13,265 nt of DNA from a virus (IMGVR_UViG_2939152649_000005); one strand, 5' to 3'. Shown: positions 1,618 through 13,265, counted from the first letter of the stretch. A program made the numbers and translations. Notes: generated from the sequence alone by a model not told the origin.

Positions 1618-2615
1618 TACCCCATTACGCGCAAAGCCTTGTTCACCGTATTCTCACTCATCGGCTTACGTGGATCGTGATCGCCCACAAAAATCAGCTC
1701 TCAATTTCCGCTCATGCTTTTGATCTTTTCCAAAATACTTAGGGCCTGCCGCGACAAAGGTACAAGGTGTGGTGTCCGCATCTTCGAGCCACGCTGAGAA
1801 TGCTTGACTCCTTCCAGTTGCTCACGCTCACCTGGGATTGTCCACATAGCCGTTTCAAAATCTACTTCTGACCAGCGGGCAAAATGCAGCTCGCTCGAAC
1901 GGATGAAAACCAATAAAGTGAGTTCAACCGCCAGTCGAGTTAACGGTCTGCCAGAATAGTGATCTATGCGATGAAGTAATTCAGGTATACGGTTCAGTTC
2001 AAGAGCTGCACGGTGCTGTCTTTTCGCCGTAGCAACCGCACCTGCAATCTCTTGCGCGGGGTTGTAGTCGATTAAGCCGCTCTGAACGGCAAAGCGCATA
2101 ATCGCGGTAGTACGCTGCTGTAAACGGGCGGCAACTTCGAGCCGCCCGGATGACTCGACTGCTTTAATGGGTACAAGAAGATCCCGCGTCTTCAGTTCCG
2201 CAATGTTCCGCTTACCGATAGCAGTAAAGAGATTATCCTCCAGACTTTTCAAAACACGAGCGCTATGCGATGCCGACCACTTCTGATTGCTGGCGTGCCA
2301 GTCTCTGGCGACTACTTCAAACGTTATCGCCTCTTGTTCCTGTTCTACCTTAACAGCTTTCTTGTTTTCACTGGGATCGACACCATTAGCTAAAAGCTTA
2401 CGAGCCTCATCCCGGCGTGCCCTGGCATCCGCCAACGACACTTCGGGGTATTTCCCCAATGCCAGCATCTTCTCTTTACCGCCAAAGCGATAACGTAGCC
2501 GCCAGTATTTGGAGCCGTTAGGGTGAACCAGCAAAACCATGCCTTCACCGTCGGTCAGCTTATAGGCTTTTGCTTCAGGCTTAGCCGAACGAACCTTCAC
2601 ATCACTCAGAGCCAT
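1618..2615 (-). pseudogene. int: P4-type (DUF4102 + tyrosine recombinase) integrase, inactivated by an in-frame TGA at 1701-1703 and truncated at the IS junction
   Basis: The N-terminus MALSDVKVRSAKPEAKAYKLTDGEGMVLLVHPNGSKYWRLRYR... (ATG at 2613-2615, AAGGA upstream) is collinear with the intact paralog at 12003-13265. The ORF stops at ...KSMSGN*, but the same frame continues ELIFVGDHDPRKPMSENTVNKALRVMGY, aligning with SGKGEVIFPSDHDPKKVMSENTVNSALRVMGY of the paralog; the stop replaces a Gly codon. Homology ends at MGY, exactly at the IS terminus, so the C-terminal ~85 aa are missing. Confidence 0.85.
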
Positions 2616-2813
2616 GATGAGTATCCTTTCAAGGGTTCTGTGTGGGTACAAACATTATCGAACCGGGAAATACCCGCAGTTGTACCCGCATCAGTAAGTT
2701 GATGTAGATTGAATCAGGTTGACTTAGGTTGAGTGAAAAAGCGAGGAAAGCCTTGCGGATACTGGATTTTAGGCACAAAAAAAGACGTCCGTTGACGTCT
2801 ATTGATGTTCCGA

Positions 2814-2907: not shown

Positions 2908-3139
2908 ACTGAAATTTCACCACCATAACTTTGCTTGATTAATAACCAAATTACATGAATATTTTGGTTTGGGTCCGAATAACGGATACAAACCAGAACA
3001 GGACCTACCACCAGAACCGCTATTAGTTGTATCGAATTTGACACAATGCCCGCCCGCAGTAATCAAGCCGTCAAGCAAATATCGTTGTGCTGTTCATGAC
3101 ACACCTGATCCCTCAAGAATTGCTCACAGCGAGAAAAAT

Positions 3140-4195
3140 ATGGATACCCCGGACATAATTTCCGTACCAGAGGTCACTGCTGCGACAGAACCGCAGTCCT
3201 CTGCAGAATGCTTCACCTTTGGCGATCCCATTCCCGTACTGGACCGGCGCGAACTGCTGGACTATGTGGAATGCGCGCAGATGGATCGCTGGTATGAGCC
3301 GCCGGTGAGTTTTGCAGGGCTGGCACGTACCTACCGAGCAGCCGTACATCACAGTTCACCAATTGCCGTTAAGCGTGACATTCTCAGCAGTACCTACATC
3401 CCACACCGCCTGCTCAGTCAGCAGTCTTTTGCCCGTTTCGTTCAGGATTATCTGGTGTTTGGTAATGCCTATCTGGAAAAGCGTACTAACCGGCTGGGCG
3501 GCGTCCTCACACTGGAGCCAGCGCTGGCGAAATACACCCGGCGCGGCGTTGACCTGGAATCCTACTGGTTTGTTAACTATGGCCTGACAACGCAGCCTTA
3601 TGAGTTCACCAGAGGCAATATTTTTCACCTGATGGAACCGGATATTAACCAGGAAATTTACGGGCTGCCCGGCTACCTCTCCGCCATTCCGTCAACCCTG
3701 CTCAACGAGTCCGCAACGCTGTTCCGCCGGAAGTATTACATCAACGGCAGCCATGCGGGCTTCATCATGTACATGACCGACGCGGCGCAGAATCAGGAGG
3801 ATGTGAACAACATCCGCAAGGCAATGAAAAGCGCCAAAGGGCCGGGCAATTTCCGCAATCTGTTTATGTACTCACCCAATGGCAAAAAGGACGGCATCCA
3901 GATCATCCCGCTGTCAGAGGTGGCGGCGAAAGATGAGTTTCTGAACATCAAGAACGTGAGCCGTGATGACATGATGGCAGCGCACCGCGTGCCGCCGCAG
4001 ATGATGGGTATCATCCCCAGCAACACCGGCGGCTTTGGCGATGTGGAAAAGGCCAGCCGTGTTTTTGTCCGCAACGAACTGATGCCGCTGCAGAAGCGAC
4101 TGCAGGAGCTGAATAACTGGCTGGGCGAAGAAGTGATCTGCTTCGAGCCTTATTCTTTACAACTTGATGAAAGTGCTGATAGCAACAGGGGGTAA
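3140..4195 (+). CDS. Possible P2 gpQ-type phage portal protein (351 aa from the first ATG); the family assignment is tentative
   Basis: Long ORF with ordinary codon usage. The track ORF begins at a TTG at 2969; the first ATG is at 3140 (MDTPDIISVPEV...). Its size matches the ~340-350 aa I recall for P2 Q, and it is transcribed toward a structured candidate cos region, as P2 Q is. I cannot confirm the family from memory. Confidence 0.5.
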   Translation: MDTPDIISVPEVTAATEPQSSAECFTFGDPIPVLDRRELLDYVECAQMDRWYEPPVSFAGLARTYRAAVHHSSPIAVKRDILSSTYIPHRLLSQQSFARFVQDYLVFGNAYLEKRTNRLGGVLTLEPALAKYTRRGVDLESYWFVNYGLTTQPYEFTRGNIFHLMEPDINQEIYGLPGYLSAIPSTLLNESATLFRRKYYINGSHAGFIMYMTDAAQNQEDVNNIRKAMKSAKGPGNFRNLFMYSPNGKKDGIQIIPLSEVAAKDEFLNIKNVSRDDMMAAHRVPPQMMGIIPSNTGGFGDVEKASRVFVRNELMPLQKRLQELNNWLGEEVICFEPYSLQLDESADSNRG

Positions 4196-4198
4196 TGT

Positions 4199-4561
4199 AT
4201 GGGATGGATCGGCGTTGATCTGGATGGCACGCTGGCGGTGTACCCGCCAGAGAGCGGGGCGCTAATAGGTGATGCCATTCCCGGCATGGCGGAAAGGGTC
4301 CGCAAATGGCACAAGGATGATATTGAAGTACGAATTTTTACCGTCCGGGCTGGTTCGCGTGCCGGAGTGAAGCAAGTTAAAGCCTGGTTGAAAGCCAATG
4401 AACTGCCGGACCTGATGGTGACGAACGTTAAAGACAGCGGCATGGTGGAATTATGGGATGACAGAGCGATACGTGTTATCCGTAATACCGGTTCAGTATG
4501 CGCCGGTTGCAACGGCACATCGCAGTTCCACCACCATTCAGGAGATTTCACCAACTGCTGA
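4199..4561 (+). CDS. Small HAD-superfamily-like protein (putative minimal phosphatase/nucleotidase) with a Cys/His-rich C-terminal tail
   Basis: ATG at 4199 is 3 nt after the upstream stop and is preceded by AGGGGG. The N-terminus MGWIGVDLDGTLA matches HAD motif I (hhhhDxDGT). Motif-II-like Thr in RIFTVRAG, downstream lysines, and motif-IV-like ELWDDRA occur with spacing compatible with a cap-less HAD fold. The tail is SVCAGCNGTSQFHHHSGDFTNC. Confidence 0.6.
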   Translation: MGWIGVDLDGTLAVYPPESGALIGDAIPGMAERVRKWHKDDIEVRIFTVRAGSRAGVKQVKAWLKANELPDLMVTNVKDSGMVELWDDRAIRVIRNTGSVCAGCNGTSQFHHHSGDFTNC

Positions 4562-4633: not shown

Positions 4634-4863
4634 GCATGAACCATGCCACGGCACATGCGCCGCTCAGGTTGCCATTTCCCCCCTCTGCGCGCGCTGCCCC
4701 CCACGCCTGCCCGCTTCGCTTAACAGAATGGTTTTCATGCACCCCGTAAATCGCCTCAGGAGCCGCCACACAAGGGCTTTCACGTCAAAAATGATGCATG
4801 AGACTCATGCGTTTTCATGCGCCATAGACATGCACTCATGCGCTCTCAGGCCAGCCAGGAAAA

Positions 4864-4916: not shown

Positions 4917-5189
4917 TCAGACAGGGATTTGCTGGCGGCTTGATAACTTTGATGCAGAGCCATAGCGATTGAGCGTTTGCTGTTGTTTTTCCGGCATTTG
5001 TGCTTTGTCTGATTCCTGTTCATTGCGCCGGGGCTTCATAATTATCTTATCCACACTTTCCAGAGCGGTAAATGTGCAGGAACATTCAAGATTCTGGCAC
5101 TGATACCATGAGCGTTTAACCGACGGTGCTTCATAGGCGGTGGTTCTGGCGTGTGCAACGGTGCCGCATTCAGGACATTTCAGCGCCAT
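4917..5189 (-). CDS. Ogr/Delta-family zinc-finger late-gene transcriptional activator
   Basis: 90-aa protein MALKCPECGTVAHARTTAYEAPSVKRSWYQCQNLECSCTFTALESVDKII... has the CxxC...CxNxxC arrangement and the HART/YxCxN motifs I recall from P2 Ogr and P4 Delta. Its ATG overlaps the stop of the upstream gene (ATGA), indicating translational coupling. Confidence 0.85.
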   Translation of the reverse strand: MALKCPECGTVAHARTTAYEAPSVKRSWYQCQNLECSCTFTALESVDKIIMKPRRNEQESDKAQMPEKQQQTLNRYGSASKLSSRQQIPV

Positions 5190-5950
5190 CAGATACCCTC
5201 CATATCACGGTTACGTTTCTGCAGCTCTTCACGTTCCTGACGGATCTTCATTTTGTGAAGGGCCGCCGGTGACGGGATTTTGCTTAAATCGACACGAGCC
5301 GCATAATCCGGCGCAACGCCCGCCAGTTTAAACACAGGGTCCTGTTCCGGCATCGCAGTGTTAGCAAGAGCCGGTTTGGTGATATGTTTGTGAATAAAGT
5401 CTTTCAGCAGTGTGTCCGGGTCATTAACTGAATTCACCACCCCCACAACGGCACTGGCTTCCCGCCCCATTGTGGTTTTGAGCAGGCTCAGTGTCTGGAT
5501 TAACGCCTTACCATGCGCCTGCATGAAGTCTTCCCAGATTTGCTTTGCGCGAATTTCCACAAGGGTGTTATGTGCGCTGATATACTGCCCGGCTAATTTC
5601 CCGGCTTCCTGCGGTAATAAGGCATTTTCGCTTTCCTGAGCTGCCAGCAGTTCATCAAAATCCTCAAGCGTTTCTCGTCCCAGCGCAATTTCCGTGCGCA
5701 GTTTTTTCATTTCCTTTGAGACTACGCCCTGACTTTCACGAAACAGCGTGCGCCACTCCTCATTCAGCGCGTTCGTCGTGGCTTCCATTTCAGCCCGGCG
5801 CTGGCGGATTGTCGCAATATTATCCGCTGCCGCTTTCTGCCGACGACGTGCTTCAAGCCATGCGCTTCTGGCTGTGTTCAGGGTTTCCATTGCCTGCTGC
5901 GTTACAGCCGGAAAAGTGGAAAGGTTGTTATTCTCTGCGGTGTTGTTCAT
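5189..5950 (-). CDS. Psu/Sid-family protein (P4 polarity-suppression / capsid-size-determination-like), 253 aa
   Basis: ATG at 5950 preceded by AGGAG. Segments QQAMETLNTARSAWL and EDFMQAHGKAL resemble regions of P4 Psu as I recall it (QQAFDTCQNNKAAWL, NDFMQQHGTAL). The protein is ~60 aa longer than P4 Psu, closer in length to Sid, and sits directly upstream of the delta-like gene as sid does in P4. Confidence 0.65.
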   Translation of the reverse strand: MNNTAENNNLSTFPAVTQQAMETLNTARSAWLEARRRQKAAADNIATIRQRRAEMEATTNALNEEWRTLFRESQGVVSKEMKKLRTEIALGRETLEDFDELLAAQESENALLPQEAGKLAGQYISAHNTLVEIRAKQIWEDFMQAHGKALIQTLSLLKTTMGREASAVVGVVNSVNDPDTLLKDFIHKHITKPALANTAMPEQDPVFKLAGVAPDYAARVDLSKIPSPAALHKMKIRQEREELQKRNRDMEGI

Positions 5951-5984
5951 GACTTCTCCTGCCGGGTAGGTTCGTTACGTCAAT

Positions 5985-6040
5985 TGTGTCGTGACTGACA
6001 CAAGCGCACTATCGGCGCTCAGTGTGTGGTGGCTGGCACA
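5985..6040 (-). promoter_or_regulatory. Candidate Ogr/Delta-dependent late promoter region upstream of the Psu/Sid-like gene: two TGT-N12-ACA dyads
   Basis: TGT-N12-ACA at 5985-6002 (inside the palindrome TTGTGTC-gtgact-GACACAA) and at 6023-6040. The second is centred ~80 nt upstream of the ATG, compatible with the -55 position described for P2/P4 late promoters. The motif is short, so chance is not excluded. Confidence 0.35.
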
Positions 6041-6127
6041 ACGGGCGTTTGCGGTTATTCAGACGCGGCCATGACAGCCAGCCAGATAAAAATGCCTCTG
6101 TTTCAGCCTGCTTTATGTCCCGGATGC

Positions 6128-6326
6128 GGTGAAACAGGTGGAACAGGTGTTACAGCATTGTTTTGTAAAACATTTATATGCACATCACAGGTGAAACATC
6201 GCAGGTAACAAGGTGGAACAGCGGATCGGCTGGCGTTCCACCTGTTCCACCTCACTATTTCAGAAGGTGAAACAGGTTTAGCCCTTGTAAAATACGGTTG
6301 TTCCACCTGTTACACTTGTTACCCTT
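6128..6326. repeat. Iteron array (about 10 copies of GGTGRAACA / TGTTYCACC in both orientations); candidate replication origin or crr-type site bound by the alpha-type primase
   Basis: Read directly: GGTGAAACAGGTGGAACAGGTG (6129-6150), GGTGAAACATCGCAGGTAACAAGGTGGAACAG (6190-6221), GTTCCACCTGTTCCACC (6236-6251), GGTGAAACAGG (6266-6276), GTTGTTCCACCTGTTACACTTGTTACCC (6298-6325). The core is close to the TGTTCACC type-I iteron I recall for P4 ori/crr. The array lies between the 3' end of the primase gene and the late operon. Confidence 0.6.
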
Positions 6327-6350
6327 AATAAATAAGACTCACGCAAAGCC

Positions 6351-9023
6351 TTAACCTAGAACCTCGCTGTTGAAGACATAGAGCCTGCGGGGATTCATCT
6401 CTGGCGGGCGAATGTTTGTCTGCAGCTTGCCATCGGTGGAGGGCAGCAGATATCCACGATCCGCGCACAGACGTGCCACCTTGCGCGGGTCAAATCCCCG
6501 GCAGATTTCTTTCCAGCCGGACGGCATGACGTAGAACGTGGTGACAGCTTCCGTGCCCTGCGCGGTACTGCCTTTCTCCACCCTGCGCCAGCCCACCATA
6601 TTGCCGGGGCGGTTGCGCTCGTCGTGCCAGTCAGCAAAGCGGCTGTACTGATTCGCGGTAAAGAAACTGCGTACCTGCTCCAGTGCGGCAATATCTTCCT
6701 GATTGGCGGTGTGCCCGCGATCTTTCAGCCATGCGTTTAGGCAGACGCGGGTTGCCCGCAGCGCTTCACCCTCAGGCCAGCCGGTAATACCCAGCCGGGT
6801 TGCCAGCTCGCCCGCCATCGCCACCAGTGCAAAGCGGTTCACAGCCCGGCCTACCTGATTACCCGCATCTTTCGGGGTCAGGGCGGCGGTATATTCCTTC
6901 ATCAGTGACTTTGCCTGTGCCGTCAGCCCGTTAAGGTCAGCGGTCAGGGCTTTCAGCCACTCCCTGAACGGCGAACCGTAGTAGCTGGACGTGGCCCACT
7001 CCAGATGTTCCGCCAGAGCCTTGCCGCTGTCGAAGCCGTGCAGCTCCTCAAATACGCCAAATTTCCCGGAATCGCTGGGGATCTGGATCATCCTGACTTC
7101 CATCCCGGCAAAGGTACGCTCACCGGCTTTTGCCGCATGTTCGGTCAGTGACAGCTCGCCGGTTGAAAAGAACAGCAGCCGCCACTGCTTACGGGTGCGC
7201 AGCTCACCGTCCGTACCGGCACGGCCCTTGCCCTGACCGTTTGCCAGCATGTAGGCGATATTACCCGCCTCGCGTCCGTCCACCTCCCGGATCTCATCAA
7301 GCATCATGGCGGCATCGTTGCGGCGGCTGGCGCATCCCTCCAGCGCGTTGCCGGTTGCCCGCCACGTCTGCCAGTAATCAGGCCCGCCACAAACGGAGGT
7401 TGCCGCTTTCATGGTGGTGGTCTTACCGTCAGTCGATTCCCCCTTGAGGTGGTAGCCGCCGCCGTCCATCCCAACCAGCCGTAACAGGGGTGCAGCAAAG
7501 GCCAGACTGACGGCAAACGCCACGCGGGAGTTACCGGTGCAGTAACGGGAAACGTGCTCCCGCCATTCCTCCGTTGTACCTGACACACGGAAATCGCGCC
7601 CCTGCACGGAAGTGGTCTGGAGAATGACACCCTCTGCACCTTCACCGCTGACCTCATCCTGCAGGACGTAAACCTGACCATGCCAGCCAGTGCGGCTGAC
7701 GCAGGTCACGCGGCGTTCCGGTTTACACAGCGAGATATATTCCATCAGGCGGGCGCGGGCCTCACCGGTGGTGCTGATATAGGACAGCCCGTTAACCAGC
7801 AGTACCCGGCGCAGTTCCTCACCGCTACCACTGAGCATTTCCATCGGCATCGCCCAGCGGCGGCGCTCTCCCCATGTATCTTCCCACTCCAGCAGTCGCC
7901 CGAAATTACCGCCATCGGCATCGCAGGTGATTGCCGTCACGCGCAACGGGTTGCATATTTTGACGTTCTGGATCTCCGTCTCACCGTTGCGCTGTACCTG
8001 TTTTTCATACCAGAGATATTCCTGGGTAAGACGGAACCCGTGCGGCAACTGCGTGCGGCCTTCTCCGCACAGTACAAGACCGTTACGAAAGGCTTCACGG
8101 GCACGTGTAATACCGTGCTCACGGTGGAAGTCATTCCAGTCAGCTTTAATTTCTCCCGGTGGCAGCGTCACCCAGCCACCGACTGATTTTGCCGCCCGTT
8201 CAGCAAAGGATCTGCCGGGATTCTCGCCCCCGTCCTGAAAATCGTTATCACCGGCGATGATAATTTTTACCTCAGGCCAGCGTGCCCGCAGCGCCTGTGC
8301 GACGTTGGGCAGGTTGCCCGCCGATATGGCCGCCACTACGCATCCGGCGGTGAGCTGGCTTACCGTCAGCGCCGTGGCGTAACCTTCGGTAATCACCACC
8401 TGTACCGGCGGTTCAGACGGTAACGGGCTGAGCGCCACAAACGCGCCTTTCATCGTGCTGCCGGGCAGTATGCTTTTTTCACCCGTCGGGGCGATAAGCT
8501 GTGCACCGGTCACGGCTCCGGCGTTCGTCGTGAGCGGTAACAGCAGGGAACCGGCAGGGAAATCCTTACCACTGATATGCTGCACGCTCCCGGTCAGGGA
8601 GGCCGGGTATCCGGCGAACCCTTTTCCGGTCAGATAGGGGCTTTCTCCCGTGTGACTCTCTTTCATCAGGGCCGCCACGGTAAGGCTCATATCGCGTTTA
8701 GGGGCTTTTTGCCTGGCGGGCTTAACGGGCAGTTCCTGCACATCCGGCACATTAAGCACCTGCGCCACCTCCTGCGCTGCCTTTCTGACGCCGTAACCGG
8801 TTATGAGCTTAACCAGATCCAGACCATCACCATTGCCGCACTGGCTGCAAATCCACGTCCCGCGCCCGTCGAGGTCATCGAGGCGGAAGCGATCCTTGCC
8901 CCCACATTTCGGGCAGGGACCGTGCCTGCCGTTTTCAGGTACATCAATACGCAGCATCTGCAGAATGACGGGCCATTTTCCCCGCGCTGCGGCTGAAATC
9001 TGCGTAACCGTCTGTGTTGTCAT
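6351..9023 (-). CDS. P4 alpha-type bifunctional DNA primase-helicase (zinc ribbon + Toprim-like primase + P-loop NTPase)
   Basis: 890-aa ORF. N-terminal CPKCGGKDRFRLDD...WICSQCGNGDG is a CxxC...CxxC zinc ribbon. IIAGDNDFQDGGENPG is a Toprim-like acidic DxD motif. GYHLKGESTDGKTTT is a Walker A (GxxxxGKT). Its ATG overlaps the stop of the upstream small ORF. Confidence 0.9.
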   Translation of the reverse strand: MTTQTVTQISAAARGKWPVILQMLRIDVPENGRHGPCPKCGGKDRFRLDDLDGRGTWICSQCGNGDGLDLVKLITGYGVRKAAQEVAQVLNVPDVQELPVKPARQKAPKRDMSLTVAALMKESHTGESPYLTGKGFAGYPASLTGSVQHISGKDFPAGSLLLPLTTNAGAVTGAQLIAPTGEKSILPGSTMKGAFVALSPLPSEPPVQVVITEGYATALTVSQLTAGCVVAAISAGNLPNVAQALRARWPEVKIIIAGDNDFQDGGENPGRSFAERAAKSVGGWVTLPPGEIKADWNDFHREHGITRAREAFRNGLVLCGEGRTQLPHGFRLTQEYLWYEKQVQRNGETEIQNVKICNPLRVTAITCDADGGNFGRLLEWEDTWGERRRWAMPMEMLSGSGEELRRVLLVNGLSYISTTGEARARLMEYISLCKPERRVTCVSRTGWHGQVYVLQDEVSGEGAEGVILQTTSVQGRDFRVSGTTEEWREHVSRYCTGNSRVAFAVSLAFAAPLLRLVGMDGGGYHLKGESTDGKTTTMKAATSVCGGPDYWQTWRATGNALEGCASRRNDAAMMLDEIREVDGREAGNIAYMLANGQGKGRAGTDGELRTRKQWRLLFFSTGELSLTEHAAKAGERTFAGMEVRMIQIPSDSGKFGVFEELHGFDSGKALAEHLEWATSSYYGSPFREWLKALTADLNGLTAQAKSLMKEYTAALTPKDAGNQVGRAVNRFALVAMAGELATRLGITGWPEGEALRATRVCLNAWLKDRGHTANQEDIAALEQVRSFFTANQYSRFADWHDERNRPGNMVGWRRVEKGSTAQGTEAVTTFYVMPSGWKEICRGFDPRKVARLCADRGYLLPSTDGKLQTNIRPPEMNPRRLYVFNSEVLG

Positions 9024-9403
9024 ACTTCCCCCTGATACAGCGAAACACCCGAGCTGCAGAAGTCATCAAATGCCGCCGGAAGTGTGCGGTACAGCTCCGC
9101 CATCACTTCACAGCCGCGCACAGTCAGTACCGGTGGCGCGGTCAGCAATGATGGCTCCAGCATGTCAGTCAGCAGCGCCAGTGCAGCCGCTGCTCCCTGT
9201 GCTTCGCCATATTCGTTAATCAGTGCGCACTCGATATGCAGGGCAATGGCCATTTCAATACGTTCAACCGTCAGGCTGTGCGGACCATAGTGATCGCAGC
9301 CGGTTTCGGTCAGCGCTTTCTGGCGCCAGGCCGATGCAATAGCCCGCCGGTAAAGCGCAGTGGTCATTTCTGCCGGAAAAATAGAAACCTGCGGCTGGTT
9401 CAT
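9020..9403 (-). CDS. Hypothetical protein (127 aa), last of four small coupled ORFs upstream of the primase gene
   Basis: Start overlaps the stop of the 9400-9684 ORF; stop overlaps the primase start. Same strand and operon as the primase. No motif recognised. Confidence 0.55.
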   Translation of the reverse strand: MNQPQVSIFPAEMTTALYRRAIASAWRQKALTETGCDHYGPHSLTVERIEMAIALHIECALINEYGEAQGAAAALALLTDMLEPSLLTAPPVLTVRGCEVMAELYRTLPAAFDDFCSSGVSLYQGEV

Positions 9404-9684
9404 TGGGTGCCTCCTTCAATCAGTTCGCAACTGTGCGCAATATCCGTCAAATCTGCCCGCAGGTACTCCATCAGCGCGGCGATGCCTGGCGCACATCCTG
9501 CATCCAGCGTTCCGCCCTGCGAGGGGTATTCAGAAAAGAGAAGCTGCAACATGTCGCAGGCCTTTCTGGCGCGGGCCAGCTTTCCGAAACCGTCCTCTGA
9601 CAACCCATACGCAAAAGCACCGCTATTGTGTTTTTCAGGCAAAGCGTGGCCCTGAGCACCGTTGTGCCCGTTTGAAATATTCAT
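9400..9684 (-). CDS. Hypothetical protein (94 aa) in the replication operon
   Basis: ATG at 9684 preceded by GGAG at about 9 nt; stop overlaps the start of the next ORF. No motif recognised. Confidence 0.55.
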   Translation of the reverse strand: MNISNGHNGAQGHALPEKHNSGAFAYGLSEDGFGKLARARKACDMLQLLFSEYPSQGGTLDAGCAPGIAALMEYLRADLTDIAHSCELIEGGTQ

Positions 9685-9715
9685 CGTGGATTACTCCGTT
9701 TTCAGCGGTGTTTTG

Positions 9716-10075
9716 TCAGAGAAACTTTGAATAGTGACTGTCGTCAGGTTCAGCAGAACGCCGTATGCTGCGCTCCCGCCAGCGGGTAAATACCACCGAC
9801 GGATGCAGCGTCAGCGAGCCAGAGCCGCTACCCCCCGCGGGAGCTGGCGAAGGTTTAAAGAGCGGCGCATCAAACAGGCGCGTATACCGCTGTTCAAACC
9901 ATGCCAGAGGGCAGGAAGAAAGCTGGTTGTCGCTGTCATGACGTATCAACACTTCACAGCTGAATTCAGGATTAACCAGCGCCACGGAGGGAGACGCTTC
10001 AATTAGTCGGATGATTGTTACGGTCCAGCCACGTTCATGCTGCCAGCGTTCGCCGGGTTGCGGATAATTACGCAT
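9716..10075 (-). CDS. Hypothetical protein (119 aa from the ATG at 10075) in the replication operon
   Basis: The track ORF is extended to 10105 by an alternative start. The ATG at 10075 is preceded by GGAGG (GGAGGTGAACATG) and overlaps the stop of the upstream 58-aa ORF (ATGCGTAA). Confidence 0.55.
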   Translation of the reverse strand: MRNYPQPGERWQHERGWTVTIIRLIEASPSVALVNPEFSCEVLIRHDSDNQLSSCPLAWFEQRYTRLFDAPLFKPSPAPAGGSGSGSLTLHPSVVFTRWRERSIRRSAEPDDSHYSKFL

Positions 10076-10244
10076 GTTCACCTCCACAGGGAATGCGACC
10101 GGCAAAGCTCAGCACATAGTCCGGGGCCAGTCTGCGCCGCGCTGAGCGCTCGTTATCTGCGGTGATCCTTAACATCACAGGACGGGCATTGCGTTGACTG
10201 CGGTTGATCGCCGCAAATAACCAGGTAAACTTCTGTTTAGCCAT
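10068..10244 (-). CDS. Small basic hypothetical protein (58 aa), first gene of the replication operon
   Basis: ATG at 10244 with GAGGA 8-9 nt upstream. The 244-aa track ORF 10068-10802 shares this frame, but its upstream part crosses an intergenic region, a terminator, and genes on both strands, so only the last 58 codons are credible. Confidence 0.45.
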   Translation of the reverse strand: MAKQKFTWLFAAINRSQRNARPVMLRITADNERSARRRLAPDYVLSFAGRIPCGGEHA

Positions 10245-10320
10245 CTTCGTTTCCTCATACAGCGGATTGGTCAGAAGCCCGGTTAGTGTTGCTGCACTGT
10301 CGGGCTTCGCATTCACAAGG

Positions 10321-10410
10321 TGAATCGCACCTTTGCTTTTAAAGCTACCCTTAAGTGAATCGCACTTCAAGTCTTTTATTATCATTTTTTTTGCGTATAC
10401 TGAATCGCAC
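10321..10410. promoter_or_regulatory. Three direct repeats of TGAATCGCAC in the divergent promoter region between the RHH gene and the replication operon; candidate operator sites
   Basis: Copies at 10321-10330, 10366-10375 and 10401-10410. The third directly follows a TATACT (-10-like) hexamer located ~30 nt upstream of the RHH gene's ATG. Confidence 0.5.
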
Positions 10411-10431
10411 CTAACGCAAGGAGATCCAGTA

Positions 10432-10617
10432 ATGGCAACGGGTTCAACTAACAACAAGTCGCAGCAACTTAATGCTCGTTTCCCACATGATGTAGTTGCA
10501 GAATTAGAAAGCAACCTTGAAGATGGAGAAACGAAAGCGCAATTTATTGTTACCGCTGTAAAAGGCGAGATTAAACGCCGACAGCGCAGGAAAAATAAGC
10601 CAGAGCAAGTAAACTGA
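10432..10617 (+). CDS. Small ribbon-helix-helix (Arc/MetJ-like) DNA-binding protein; candidate repressor
   Basis: 61 aa from the ATG at 10432, with a strong AAGGAG 8 nt upstream. NARFPHDVVAELE resembles the RHH N-terminal beta-strand/helix of Arc (NLRWPREVLDLV). It is divergent from the replication operon and followed by a terminator. Confidence 0.6.
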   Translation: MATGSTNNKSQQLNARFPHDVVAELESNLEDGETKAQFIVTAVKGEIKRRQRRKNKPEQVN

Positions 10618-10680
10618 ATAGAGAAGCGAACAGACGTTCTCTCAGGTTCCATGTCAATTTCAGTAAGCGACAATATTTTT

Positions 10681-10714
10681 AAGCCCACAAACTCAATTTG
10701 TCGGGCTTTTTTAT
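10681..10714 (+). terminator. Rho-independent terminator for the RHH gene, at the convergence with alpA
   Basis: AAGCCCACAA-actcaat-TTGTCGGGCTT hairpin (one bulge) followed by TTTTTTATT on the plus strand. Confidence 0.55.
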
Positions 10715-10944
10715 TAGTGATTTTCATGCCGTTCACCACGAGAGGCATATATTTGCTCTTGAATCCAGTGATCGACTTCGCTTTCAACAAATGAAATTGC
10801 ACGAGTTCCTATTTTCACCGGGCGGGGAAATGTATTGTTTGAAAGCTGTTTGTAAAGCCATGCCTTGCTACGCTGAACGCGTCTTAGCACCTCTTTTGCT
10901 GAGATAAGAGTCTGATTATCTGAAAGGTTGTTTGCATATTCCAT
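10714..10944 (-). CDS. alpA: AlpA-family phage regulatory protein (MerR-like HTH; excisionase/Vis-like)
   Basis: 76 aa from the ATG at 10944, with GGAG 7 nt upstream; the track ORF is extended by a GTG start. ...ISAKEVLRRVQRSKAWLYKQLSNNTFPRPVKIGTRAISFVESEVDHWIQEQI matches the AlpA signature I recall (L..EV....GLSRST.Y.....G.FP.P.K.G.R...W...E...W). Confidence 0.8.
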   Translation of the reverse strand: MEYANNLSDNQTLISAKEVLRRVQRSKAWLYKQLSNNTFPRPVKIGTRAISFVESEVDHWIQEQIYASRGERHENH

Positions 10945-11250
10945 CTTGTTACTCCGTGTTCTACTTAAGTTCACGGTGACTTTAAACAGTGTAAGAACAT
11001 GATTCTAGTGATAATGGAATCTATCGAAACCGATATAGTTTCTATTGAAAGATTTTTATTTCTATTAAAAATGAAATGCAAACTTGATCGGCATCTAGTT
11101 AAAAATAAAACACAATAATATCATAAAGTTAAATTATAACTTCGAGTTCAAAACATGGATTAAAGTCACTCAATGGGTATTCATTGCACTATAACACATC
11201 ATATTTCCCCATATCTCCCCAGTATTACGCAGTTTTAGCCAGTTTATTAC

Positions 11251-11290
11251 TATAGCCCCTTATAGCCCCTTATAGCCACTTATAGTCCTG
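11251..11290. repeat. 10-bp tandem repeat TATAGCCCCT x4 (two perfect, two degenerate copies)
   Basis: TATAGCCCCT TATAGCCCCT TATAGCCACT TATAGTCCTG read directly, 45-80 nt downstream of the 212-aa gene stop in an AT-rich spacer. Confidence 0.8.
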
Positions 11291-11333
11291 AATCAGGGTA
11301 AGAAATGAAAGACTTTTATCTACTAATAGAAAA

Positions 11334-11972
11334 TCATTTCCCATACTTAATAATATCATTCCCAATTTTTACTTTTTTATAAAACGTGGCTTTCTTAACC
11401 CCTTCCAGTGAAATTTGATGCTCATTACAAAAAGAGATAATATCATTATATATCACACTATTATCACCATAACTTGCCTTACCATATTTTTTGAGCAACT
11501 CAATTAATAATGAAATTAATTTACAATTATTATTATCTTCATCCTCTTTTCTGTATTGCCCTCTGCCATTACTCCTTAACTTTTTACCAACTTCATATAA
11601 TTCACTTCCTCCTAACATCATTAAAATATCGCCCCAATCTTTATTTTTTACTTGTTGTAGCAATGCGTTATCAATTCTTTCCTTAATTTCAGGAGGTACA
11701 ATATCTTCCCTCTGAAAGATATAAGCGGCAGTTAATACTAAATTCGCTTCCACTTTTTGCGTGGCGGATATGTTTTTATATTCATTAATTAATTGTAGAT
11801 TTCTGGTTATTGCCTTTCTTAACCTAATAACCTCTTTTAATTGAATATCAGTTAATTCATCATTTTCTGTATCATAGTCAAAACCATTCATAGCAAGCGC
11901 TACTTCGTGCGGCGTAATGTATGTTAACCTATTAAAATAAAACAAATTATTATCAGATTGAGTGTTATTCAT
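11334..11972 (-). CDS. Hypothetical protein, 212 aa, strongly AT-rich orphan cargo gene directly downstream of the integrase
   Basis: ATG at 11972 with GGAG 8 nt upstream, 30 nt after the integrase stop on the same strand. Asn/Lys/Ile-rich composition and AT-rich codons contrast with the GC-rich replication module. No motif recognised. Confidence 0.7.
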   Translation of the reverse strand: MNNTQSDNNLFYFNRLTYITPHEVALAMNGFDYDTENDELTDIQLKEVIRLRKAITRNLQLINEYKNISATQKVEANLVLTAAYIFQREDIVPPEIKERIDNALLQQVKNKDWGDILMMLGGSELYEVGKKLRSNGRGQYRKEDEDNNNCKLISLLIELLKKYGKASYGDNSVIYNDIISFCNEHQISLEGVKKATFYKKVKIGNDIIKYGK

Positions 11973-12002
11973 TTGAATTTCTCCTCAGAGCCACAATGGT
12001 AA

Positions 12003-13265
12003 TTATTTTCCATGCACACGCGCAAAATCATATGGTGTGATAGATCCATTCTTGTTAGCATCAATGTAATCAGCCCACCATTGCAGCATTAATTTTCTTT
12101 CTTCAAGATATTCAGATGTATGCATGTATGAACCTTTCACGTTTTTTCGTTCAACGTGACTTAGCTGTCTTTCAATGGCATCATCATTCCATAGTTTCGA
12201 CTCACTTAGCGCACCACGCGCCATAGTTCTAAAACCATGCCCACATACTTCTGTCTTCGTATCATATCCCATTACACGTAAGGCACTATTTACAGTATTT
12301 TCACTCATTACTTTTTTAGGATCATGATCGCTGGGAAATATAACCTCGCCTTTACCGCTCAAGGCATGTAAACGTTTAAAAATATCAAATGCTTGTTTGC
12401 TAAGCGGAACAATATGTTCAGTTTTCATCTTCATCCCACGCTCAGAGTGTTTTACGCCGGGAATAGGTTTACGAATTCCGGGTATCGTCCACTCGCTTCG
12501 TTCAAAGTTAACCTCACTCCATCGAGCAAAACGCATCTCACTTGAACGAATAAATGTGAGTAGCGTTAATTCAACGGCAAGCCGTGTCATTAGTCGCCCT
12601 TTATAGCGTGATAGTCTTTCAAGAAACTCAGGGATTCTTTTTGGGGGTAGTGCTGGGTGATGGGTTGCCTTAACGCTTAAAAGCGCTCCAGCCATATCAC
12701 TGGCAGGATTTGATTCAAGAAGGTCATTCTGCACACCGAAACGCATAATTGCGGTTACGCGCTGCATCAGTCGCTGCGCAACATCATGTTTACCTGCCGC
12801 ATCAACAGCTTTGATCGGATTGAGAAGCTGGCTGGTTCTCAACGTTCTGGCGTCAATTTGACCTATCGAGGGGAAAATATACTGCTCAAGCGTCAGCAGA
12901 ACGCGACGGCTATGATCTTCGCTCCAAGTTAGGTTACTTGCGTGCCATTGCCTTGCGATAGTTTCAAATAAATATGCCCCCTCAATTTCAGCTTGTGCCC
13001 CCTTTTGCTCAGCTTTGGGGTCAATGCCCTGAGACAACAATTTCTTTGCTGCATCGCGCTTACCCCTAGCCTCAGCCAAAGTGATCGTCGGGTATACACC
13101 AAAAGCGAGCCGATCTTCCTTTTTGTCAGATGGGCGGCGATATTTCATGCGCCAATACTTGGAACCTTTTGGGGAGACTTCAAGATACAAGCCGCCTCCA
13201 TCAGCCATTTTATAGGCTTTCTCTTTCGGCTTTGCGGTCTCTATCTGGCGAGCATTGAGTTTCAT
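12003..13265 (-). CDS. int: P4-type tyrosine integrase (DUF4102 N-terminal domain + catalytic domain), apparently intact, 420 aa
   Basis: The ORF runs from an ATG formed by the last 3 nt of the window to a stop at 12003. The N-terminus MKLNARQIETAKPKEKAYKMADGGGLYLEVSPKGSKYWRMKYR is collinear with the pseudogene at 1618-2615. It retains the C-terminal part the pseudogene lacks, including HGFRTMARGAL (box II H-x-x-R) and downstream Tyr residues. Confidence 0.9.
   Translation of the reverse strand: MKLNARQIETAKPKEKAYKMADGGGLYLEVSPKGSKYWRMKYRRPSDKKEDRLAFGVYPTITLAEARGKRDAAKKLLSQGIDPKAEQKGAQAEIEGAYLFETIARQWHASNLTWSEDHSRRVLLTLEQYIFPSIGQIDARTLRTSQLLNPIKAVDAAGKHDVAQRLMQRVTAIMRFGVQNDLLESNPASDMAGALLSVKATHHPALPPKRIPEFLERLSRYKGRLMTRLAVELTLLTFIRSSEMRFARWSEVNFERSEWTIPGIRKPIPGVKHSERGMKMKTEHIVPLSKQAFDIFKRLHALSGKGEVIFPSDHDPKKVMSENTVNSALRVMGYDTKTEVCGHGFRTMARGALSESKLWNDDAIERQLSHVERKNVKGSYMHTSEYLEERKLMLQWWADYIDANKNGSITPYDFARVHGK

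Follow-up and report, generated by a model that had tools for sequence, protein, structure and literature searches.

A conserved twelve-iteron array beside a primase-helicase gene is a likely replication origin of a P4-related phage satellite

Genetic setting of the array

The viral DNA considered here, a stretch of 13,265 nucleotides that we refer to as the window, is a P4-related phage satellite. It contains the gene for an 890-residue primase-helicase, Pri-Rep (6351-9023), which like the other genes, the boxes, and the late promoter in this and the next paragraph is read from the minus strand. A P4-type integrase is encoded at 12003-13265, and a gene for a DUF5375 protein (9020-9403; Pfam DUF5375) overlaps the start codon of the Pri-Rep gene. 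The product of this smaller gene is a homologue of P4 ORF106 (cnr), with 43% identity, and P4 Cnr is a regulator of copy number (PMC8628076). An array of short repeats, or iterons, begins 25 nt past the Pri-Rep stop codon. The leader that separates the stop codon from the first iteron (6326-6350) is AT-rich, averaging 23% GC, and contains a TCTTAT box (6332-6337) that is invariant in 14 of 14 aligned arrays and is always positioned 8-10 nt before the first iteron. Compared by eye, the box does not fit the DnaA, IHF, or -10 consensus.

Past the array are the late genes. A second box, TCTGGCTGGC (6077-6086), lies between the array and the late promoter, and its CTGGCnGGC columns are kept in 12 of the 14 arrays. 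The TCTGGCnGGC box and part of the distal Delta dyad are complementary to each other. The Psid-like late promoter (5985-6040) aligns with P4 Psid and is made up of two TGT-N12-ACA activator (Ogr/Delta) dyads at 6023-6040 and 5985-6002, the first of them about 87 nt beyond the last unit of the array. The dyad centers are 38 bp apart and the second center is 43.5 nt from the ATG at 5950, distances that are identical in P4 Psid. The promoter is a neighbor of the origin proposed below and not a part of it. The first late gene downstream of the array (5189-5950) encodes a capsid-morphogenesis protein of the Psu/Sid type (Pfam Psu; phrog_6165, E 8e-95; PGAP names), and it is followed by a zinc-finger late activator of the Ogr/Delta type (4917-5189; Pfam Ogr_Delta, E 1e-16). 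Across 4917-13265, the single Psu/Sid-family gene and delta are thus downstream of, and co-directional with, the primase-helicase gene, unlike the order in P4; the canonical P4-like gene order is described in PMC8628076.

The remainder of the window holds several features of separate interest. At the far end of the element, beyond a variable slot, is a P2 Q-like portal gene (2969-4195, plus strand; phrog_68, E 1.8e-171), which is also present in E. coli relatives and is an unusual gene for a P4-like satellite to carry. Here, the slot that separates delta from the portal gene holds a 120-residue HAD/PNK-like ORF (4199-4561, plus strand), and in relatives it is occupied by a DUF4062 protein (EC1515, L002 5556-6521) or by the reverse transcriptase Drt3a (another E. 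coli, L003 1-82); it looks like a defense hotspot. No exact copy of the P4 cos 19-mer is found in the window. A C-rich stretch, TTTCCCCCCTCTGCGCGCGCTGCC, at about 4672-4700 is similar to the complement of P2/P4 cos and may serve as the packaging site. An IS3-family element within 350-2651 (orfA 1237-1563, orfB 350-1240, and an ALIL frameshift pseudoknot at 1166-1282) abuts a second, truncated P4-type integrase (1701-2651, minus strand), which suggests the remnant of a neighboring island. A tRNA scan found none, and no match to C4/isrK, the P4 CI RNA, was found in the window.

Architecture of the iteron array

The array is made up of 12 sites with conserved positions that fill 6128-6325, as established by reading the sequence and by alignment of 13 relatives. 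Seven of the sites are exact copies of the 9-mer GGTGRAACA and five are degenerate copies. Each unit is given below on the strand on which it reads GGTGRAACA, and this strand defines its orientation. Nearest the Pri-Rep gene is a minus-strand triplet formed by I1 (6317-6325, AGGGTAACA), I2 (6308-6316, AGTGTAACA), and I3 (6299-6307, GGTGGAACA). The next unit, I4 (6266-6274, plus strand, GGTGAAACA), is inverted relative to the triplet and is followed by the minus-strand pair I5 (6243-6251, GGTGGAACA) and I6 (6234-6242, GGTGGAACG). All of the remaining units are on the plus strand: I7 (6212-6220, GGTGGAACA), I8 (6202-6210, CAGGTAACA), which is degenerate with a GGTAACA core, I9 (6190-6198, GGTGAAACA), and finally the outer triplet of I10 (6146-6154, GGTGTTACA), I11 (6137-6145, GGTGGAACA), and I12 (6128-6136, GGTGAAACA). 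Read on the minus strand, which is that of the initiator gene, I1-I3 are direct, I4 is inverted, I5-I6 are direct, and I7-I12 are inverted. Tandem neighbors (I1-I3, I5-I6, and I10-I12) are spaced by exactly 9 bp. The central inverted pair consists of I5-I6 against I8 and I7, and the outer triplet I10-I12 is inverted relative to I1-I3, so that the two arms are complementary. A possible thirteenth unit on the minus strand, the degenerate GCTGAAACA at 6099-6107, has a conserved position only in the window's own clade and may be a chance match.

Spacer A (6275-6298) is 24 nt long with 42% GC, and its sequence is not conserved in relatives, while the center between I6 and I7 is a GC-rich stretch of 13 nt. 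Spacer B (6155-6189) is AT-rich (35 nt, 29% GC) and is a candidate DNA-unwinding element. It has three iterons on either side, and in the window I9 and I10-I12 point the same way across it; in many relatives they are opposite, I9 having the opposite orientation in several lineages. Opposite orientation is seen in the window across spacer A (I1-I3 against I4) and between the outer triplets. Spacer B also contains a near-consensus DnaA box, ATATGCACA (6176-6184), which was rejected as a conserved feature because it is absent even from the closest relatives.

An earlier note on this DNA, made from the sequence alone, had described about ten copies of the repeat in both orientations within 200 bp, and the stretch that it singled out fits the 12-site array exactly. 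Its view that such repetition exceeds chance is borne out by the counts. All seven exact copies of GGTGRAACA in the window fall within 6128-6307, on both strands, compared with 0.21 expected in the whole window, and none of 200 dinucleotide-preserving shuffles reached seven. Allowing one mismatch adds only the copies at 6234-6242, in the array, and 6099-6107, just outside it. No second iteron cluster is present in the 13.3-kb window, which may be less than the entire element, or within 3 kb on either side of the initiator gene in relatives. The array was also rightly placed between the 3' end of the primase gene and the late promoter, given the 25 nt from the stop codon and the Psid-like dyads beyond, and it is indeed non-coding: the PGAP annotation of E. 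coli relatives has no CDS there, and the longest open frames across it vary in strand, frame, and position among 14 relatives. A CRISPR array, which the note had already dismissed, would be made up of direct repeats of 23-50 bp at regular spacing, and is rejected here on the strength of 9-bp units that are irregularly spaced and found in both orientations. The array region matches no Rfam family, and a scan of 5800-6500 for promoters and terminators found neither a sigma-70 promoter nor an intrinsic terminator. Early transcripts may therefore read into the array, as the window has no intrinsic terminator there. In one relative (L037 5662-5690), a clear intrinsic terminator, GGAGGGGCGTAATGCCCCTTTTTTT, is located between the gene and the leader box.

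Conservation and concerted change in relatives

The array is widespread. Within E. coli, it is present at 90-98% identity in 325 of 5,426 complete genomes. When one genome of each bacterial species was scanned, 53 loci encoding relatives that are 57-99% identical were recovered, and 48 of these were examined. A dense array in the same layout is found in 47 of 47 Enterobacterales loci in which the gene is intact or carries only minor frameshifts, and this layout is kept from Escherichia to Xenorhabdus and Proteus. For 45 loci that include the gene together with its downstream flank, the first 450 nt past the gene contain 6-13 copies of one 7-mer. In two loci (L039 and L047), an inserted integrase-like gene displaces the array by 1.1 kb, and both the layout and the TCTTAT leader box have stayed with it. 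The array is missing from only one examined locus, L054, and there the gene is decayed, with 28 stops in its reading frame. In an alignment of 14 arrays, the majority base has a mean frequency of 0.80 in iteron columns, 42 of 106 of which reach at least 90%, compared with 0.57 and 4 of 86 for spacer columns. The spacers stay AT-rich while their sequence does not persist, and spacer B has at most 39% GC in 12 of 14 relatives.

The iteron unit itself varies by lineage and switches at all sites together. At least eight iteron types share a single conserved layout, and the class changes 15 times on the protein tree. In addition to the GGT-GGAACA of the window, these include GGT-GTAACA, GGG-GTAACA, CTG-GTAACA, GAG-GTAACA, GTG-GTAACA, GTG-GGAACA, GTG-GATACA, and GTAGTACA. 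Within the window's own type, the units vary mainly by G or A at position 5. That 12 dispersed sites change in concert while their layout stays fixed points to a sequence reader acting in trans, and this is the strongest argument for the iterons as protein-binding sites. In the window's clade, I1, I2, and I10 keep the GTAACA-type core that is common elsewhere, with GGAACA or GAAACA at the other sites, and these three may be lagging sites in a concerted switch.

The array DNA has no match among deposited phages, and tblastn of the helicase part returned only relatives below 34% identity; no characterized phage or satellite record therefore covers this Pri-Rep family. A full-text literature search for the iteron strings found unrelated primer sequences only. 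Records that might have pointed to a plasmid state give no evidence of one, as two of them represent a single 655-kb E. coli plasmid sequence with the element integrated in it and a third, a 6,989-bp 'plasmid', is a linear contig of a fragmented assembly.

The Pri-Rep protein and its link to the iteron sequence

Structurally, Pri-Rep can be divided into a Zn-ribbon and Toprim primase (residues ~30-305), a DUF927 ATPase/helicase (330-612), a helical linker, and a predicted C-terminal winged helix (~796-890). Residues 1-316 resemble P4 alpha, with 37% identity over 320 residues by BLASTP and with the Zn-ribbon, the Toprim domain, and the EGYATA motif in common, and the similarity ends at residue 316. 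The helicase part matches Pfam DUF927 (E 2e-90), and phmmer relates it to the SaPIbov1 replication initiator (8tch, 4.5e-15) and to the SCCmec helicase Cch (5dgk, 2.8e-13). An AF2 model, built on a shallow alignment of 30 sequences at least 55% identical and with a mean pLDDT of 79, predicts a fold that also matches 8tch and 5dgk, at 9-15% structural-alignment identity to the SaPI Reps. The predicted C-terminal winged helix resembles those of SaPI Rep, SCCmec Cch, and the oriT-bound TcpK, with a predicted recognition helix at residues 846-855 and a predicted wing at 866-871. A profile of the C-terminus found nothing among PDB sequences and showed no detectable similarity to the C-terminus of P4 alpha (hhalign probability 0.16%). 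Since the likeness to P4 alpha ends at residue 316 and the remainder is of the SaPI Rep/Cch type, Pri-Rep is, as judged from its sequence, a natural fusion of a P4 alpha-type primase to a SaPI Rep-type helicase and origin-binding module. The one correction to the earlier interpretation is that the origin-binding part is not of the P4 alpha kind; only the N-terminal primase third is homologous to the P4 protein.

Pairs of nearly identical proteins with different iterons have provided some insight into which residues may read the DNA. L024 and L028 encode proteins that are 98% identical (21 differences), and their units are GGTGTAACA and GGGTAACA, respectively. The differences fall at residues 11-252, 649, 807, 846, 867, 883, and 887, with none between 253 and 648. 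L025 and L026, at 97% identity, have the units GGTGTAACA and CTGGTAACA and differ in the C-terminal part at 807, 825, 846, 850, 866, 870, and 887. The differences that recur in these pairs (807, 846, 850, 866/867, 870, and 887) map to the recognition helix and wing of the predicted fold. A lysine is found at residue 866 where the upstream base triplet within the iteron has G as its second base, and an arginine where that base is T or A. This rule holds in every alignable locus (42 of the 45 loci on the tree), and the tree, which was built from residues 325-790, implies that four switches took place independently. The association could be due in part to physical linkage, because codon 866 is only about 100 nt from the array and both would fit in one recombination tract. 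No single protein column over residues 320-890 separates GGAACA from GTAACA iterons, and when segment identity was regressed on iteron class, the profile had only weak peaks, at residues 595-640 and 850-890. It is likely that the predicted C-terminal winged helix reads the iterons.

Comparison with known replication origins

The resemblance to the iterons bound by P4 alpha that had been proposed holds as a resemblance when the array is compared with P4 ori1 and crr. The window unit is equivalent to the type I octamer of P4, GGTGAACA, plus one purine, and the P4 iterons are TGTTCACC whereas the window units are 9-mers, TGTT(C/T)CACC. No exact P4 octamer is present in the array, nor within 500 nt downstream of the gene in 47 of 48 relatives; one is found in L039. 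The position of the array is also that of P4 crr, directly 3' of alpha, but P4 ori1 and crr are about 4.5 kb apart and the window has one compact cluster. P4 ori1 lies upstream of Psid, and the window array is likewise upstream of a Psid-type promoter. The array is thus in the crr and ori1 positions at once because the late genes here follow the alpha-type gene, with which they are co-directional, while in P4 they are divergent from the early operon. The order in P4 ori1, three direct, one inverted, and two direct, is that of I1-I6. A sequence similar to the 6077-6086 box, CCTGGCTTGCC, is located at the equivalent place in P4, between ori1 and Psid (L001 ~9464-9476). Both elements encode a Cnr homologue just upstream of the primase gene and an alpha-type Zn-ribbon/Toprim primase with homologous N-termini. 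The helicase and origin-binding parts of P4 alpha are D5_N, DUF5906, and Pox_D5, in contrast to Pri-Rep, which has DUF927 and lacks those domains.

A second point of comparison is provided by the staphylococcal pathogenicity islands SaPIbov1, SaPI1, and SaPI5. The C-terminal winged helix of SaPI Reps recognizes 6-12 iterons that lie immediately downstream of rep and surround an AT-rich center, with iterons in opposite orientation to either side of this AT-rich stretch and at least two per side (PMC9371898). Pri-Rep resembles these proteins in its Rep-type ATPase (DUF927, MCM-like AAA+), in its predicted C-terminal winged helix, and in having iterons 3' of its gene, here 12 putative sites of which the first lies 25 nt past the stop codon. 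SaPI5, like the window, has a primase fused to Rep, and the iteron sequence of SaPIs is lineage-specific (PMC9371898), as it is in this family, with at least eight types in one layout. There are also differences. The window host is Gram-negative, the satellite backbone is of the P2/P4 type (Psu/Sid-like, Ogr/Delta, and Cnr), and the primase domain is an alpha-type Zn-ribbon/Toprim. SaPI iterons are 5-6-mers and the window units are 9-mers in a near-palindromic 3-1-2/2-1-3 layout, and around the main AT-rich spacer I9 and I10-I12 point the same way, at variance with the strict form of the orientation rule, which does hold across spacer A, for the outer triplets, and, between I9 and I10-I12, in many relatives.

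Origins of the phage-inducible chromosomal islands (PICIs) of Gram-negative bacteria follow the same plan as those of SaPIs, and the pri-ori of EcCICFT073 replicates experimentally (PMC6092414). This E. coli satellite has int, alpA, and pri followed by an iteron origin with an AT-rich center (PMC6092414), a plan like that of the window. Its origin (L058 21997-22284) has CTGTCTACC iterons in an intergenic region, with the TGT..ACC outline that is also seen in the window. The EcCICFT073 Pri-Rep, however, is of the D5_N/DUF5906/Pox_D5 type and has no significant similarity to the window protein, and its helper is lambdoid and cos-type rather than P2-like. EcCICFT073 also lacks the Psu/Sid or Ogr/Delta module. 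The TGT..ACC outline is shared by the iterons of P4 (L001 4291-4590 and 9310-9413), EcCICFT073, and the window (TGTTNCACC and variants), and is thus common to three initiators with two unrelated origin-binding modules. The closest family for the window is the SaPI/PICI Rep-ori replicon, carried in a P4-type backbone.

Interpretation of the array

Taken together, the enrichment and position of the repeats, the type of initiator, the comparative conservation, the concerted change, the link to the protein, and the P4 context make it highly probable that the array is the vegetative or plasmid replication origin of this P4-related satellite, and that the 12 iterons are the cognate sites of Pri-Rep. 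A likely origin is also what the earlier note had proposed, and arrays of the same layout in 47 loci with concerted iteron change now lend support to it. One point against an origin is that crr, and not the site of initiation, occupies the corresponding position downstream of alpha in P4. Alternatively, then, the array may be a cis-acting enhancer similar to crr that is bound by the initiator, with DNA synthesis starting elsewhere, as in P4 with its crr and ori1. The N-terminal primase and the Cnr homologue are also P4-like, in keeping with this idea. We consider it unlikely because there is no second cluster, with the proviso that the window may not hold the entire element, and because the helicase and C-terminus are of the SaPI Rep type, which uses single origins adjoining rep; the array is, in addition, in the ori1 position upstream of Psid. 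The repeats may instead be operator or copy-control sites for the initiator, for Cnr/DUF5375, or for another regulator, acting through handcuffing or through control of read-through from early operon to late genes. Iterons of iteron plasmids also serve in autoregulation and handcuffing, and the array does separate the early operon from the late promoter, in an interval that lacks an intrinsic terminator. Such a role in place of an origin is decidedly unlikely, as conserved Ogr/Delta dyads that belong to the late promoter itself lie outside the array, the arrays of L039 and L047 keep their layout though another gene separates them from the primase gene, and twelve sites around AT-rich spacers follow the plan of an origin and not that of an operator. 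A control role would in any case add to origin function rather than exclude it.

It is also conceivable, if very improbable, that the array functions through nucleic acid structure (as a 3'UTR RNA, a cruciform, or a single-stranded DNA hairpin) and not as a set of protein-binding sites in duplex DNA. The minus-strand RNA of 6095-6350 folds at -88.5 kcal/mol compared with -65.8 kcal/mol in shuffles (z = -4.6), and the arms formed by I1-I3 and I10-I12 are complementary. This fold energy follows from the presence of the same 9-mer in both orientations, and half of the units are tandem direct copies in a constant 9-bp phase, an arrangement not required for a hairpin; nor is there a match to an Rfam family. 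Compensatory change does not discriminate between the structural and binding-site models because all units change together. That the repeats are inert, having arisen by chance or slippage, is scarcely credible given that none of the 200 shuffles reached the observed count and that taxa from Escherichia to Xenorhabdus and Proteus have kept the layout with the units changing in concert.

If the array is an origin, initiation may be pictured as follows, each step being modeled on homologous systems. The C-terminal winged helices of the hexameric DUF927 helicase would dock on the iterons, and the two inverted half-sites of six (I1-I6 and I7-I12) would fit two hexamers. Melting would occur in an AT-rich stretch, most likely spacer B, or alternatively in the AT-rich leader. 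The helicase would then load itself with no host loader, and the fused Toprim primase would make the first primers for host DNA polymerase III. The Cnr homologue encoded upstream probably modulates binding and copy number, as in P4.

A more speculative reading, which we regard as rather unlikely, is that the origin outlived its initiator. The TGT..ACC outline, the 3-1-2 order, the CTGGC box, and Psid all mirror P4 ori1 while the helicase and origin-binding part is SaPI Rep-like, a combination that could arise by domain displacement on a conserved origin or by strong convergence. The array would then be a compact palindromic origin of two times six sites that combines the roles of ori and crr and fits the loading of a double hexamer, and re-tuning of specificity at one or two wing residues (K/R866) would have been followed by concerted change of all 12 iterons.

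Significance

An iteron origin adjoining rep is in itself biology that is already established for SaPIs, PICIs, and P4. An origin together with its cognate initiator defines a minimal replicon, which is of use for satellite-based vectors, for the prediction of incompatibility groups, and for finding complete satellites in genomes. Initiators that are 97-98% identical and yet have different iterons make up a natural series in which the co-evolution of initiator and origin specificity can be studied. Finally, satellites of this family carry anti-phage defense genes in their variable slot, such as those for Drt3a and the DUF4062 protein in relatives.
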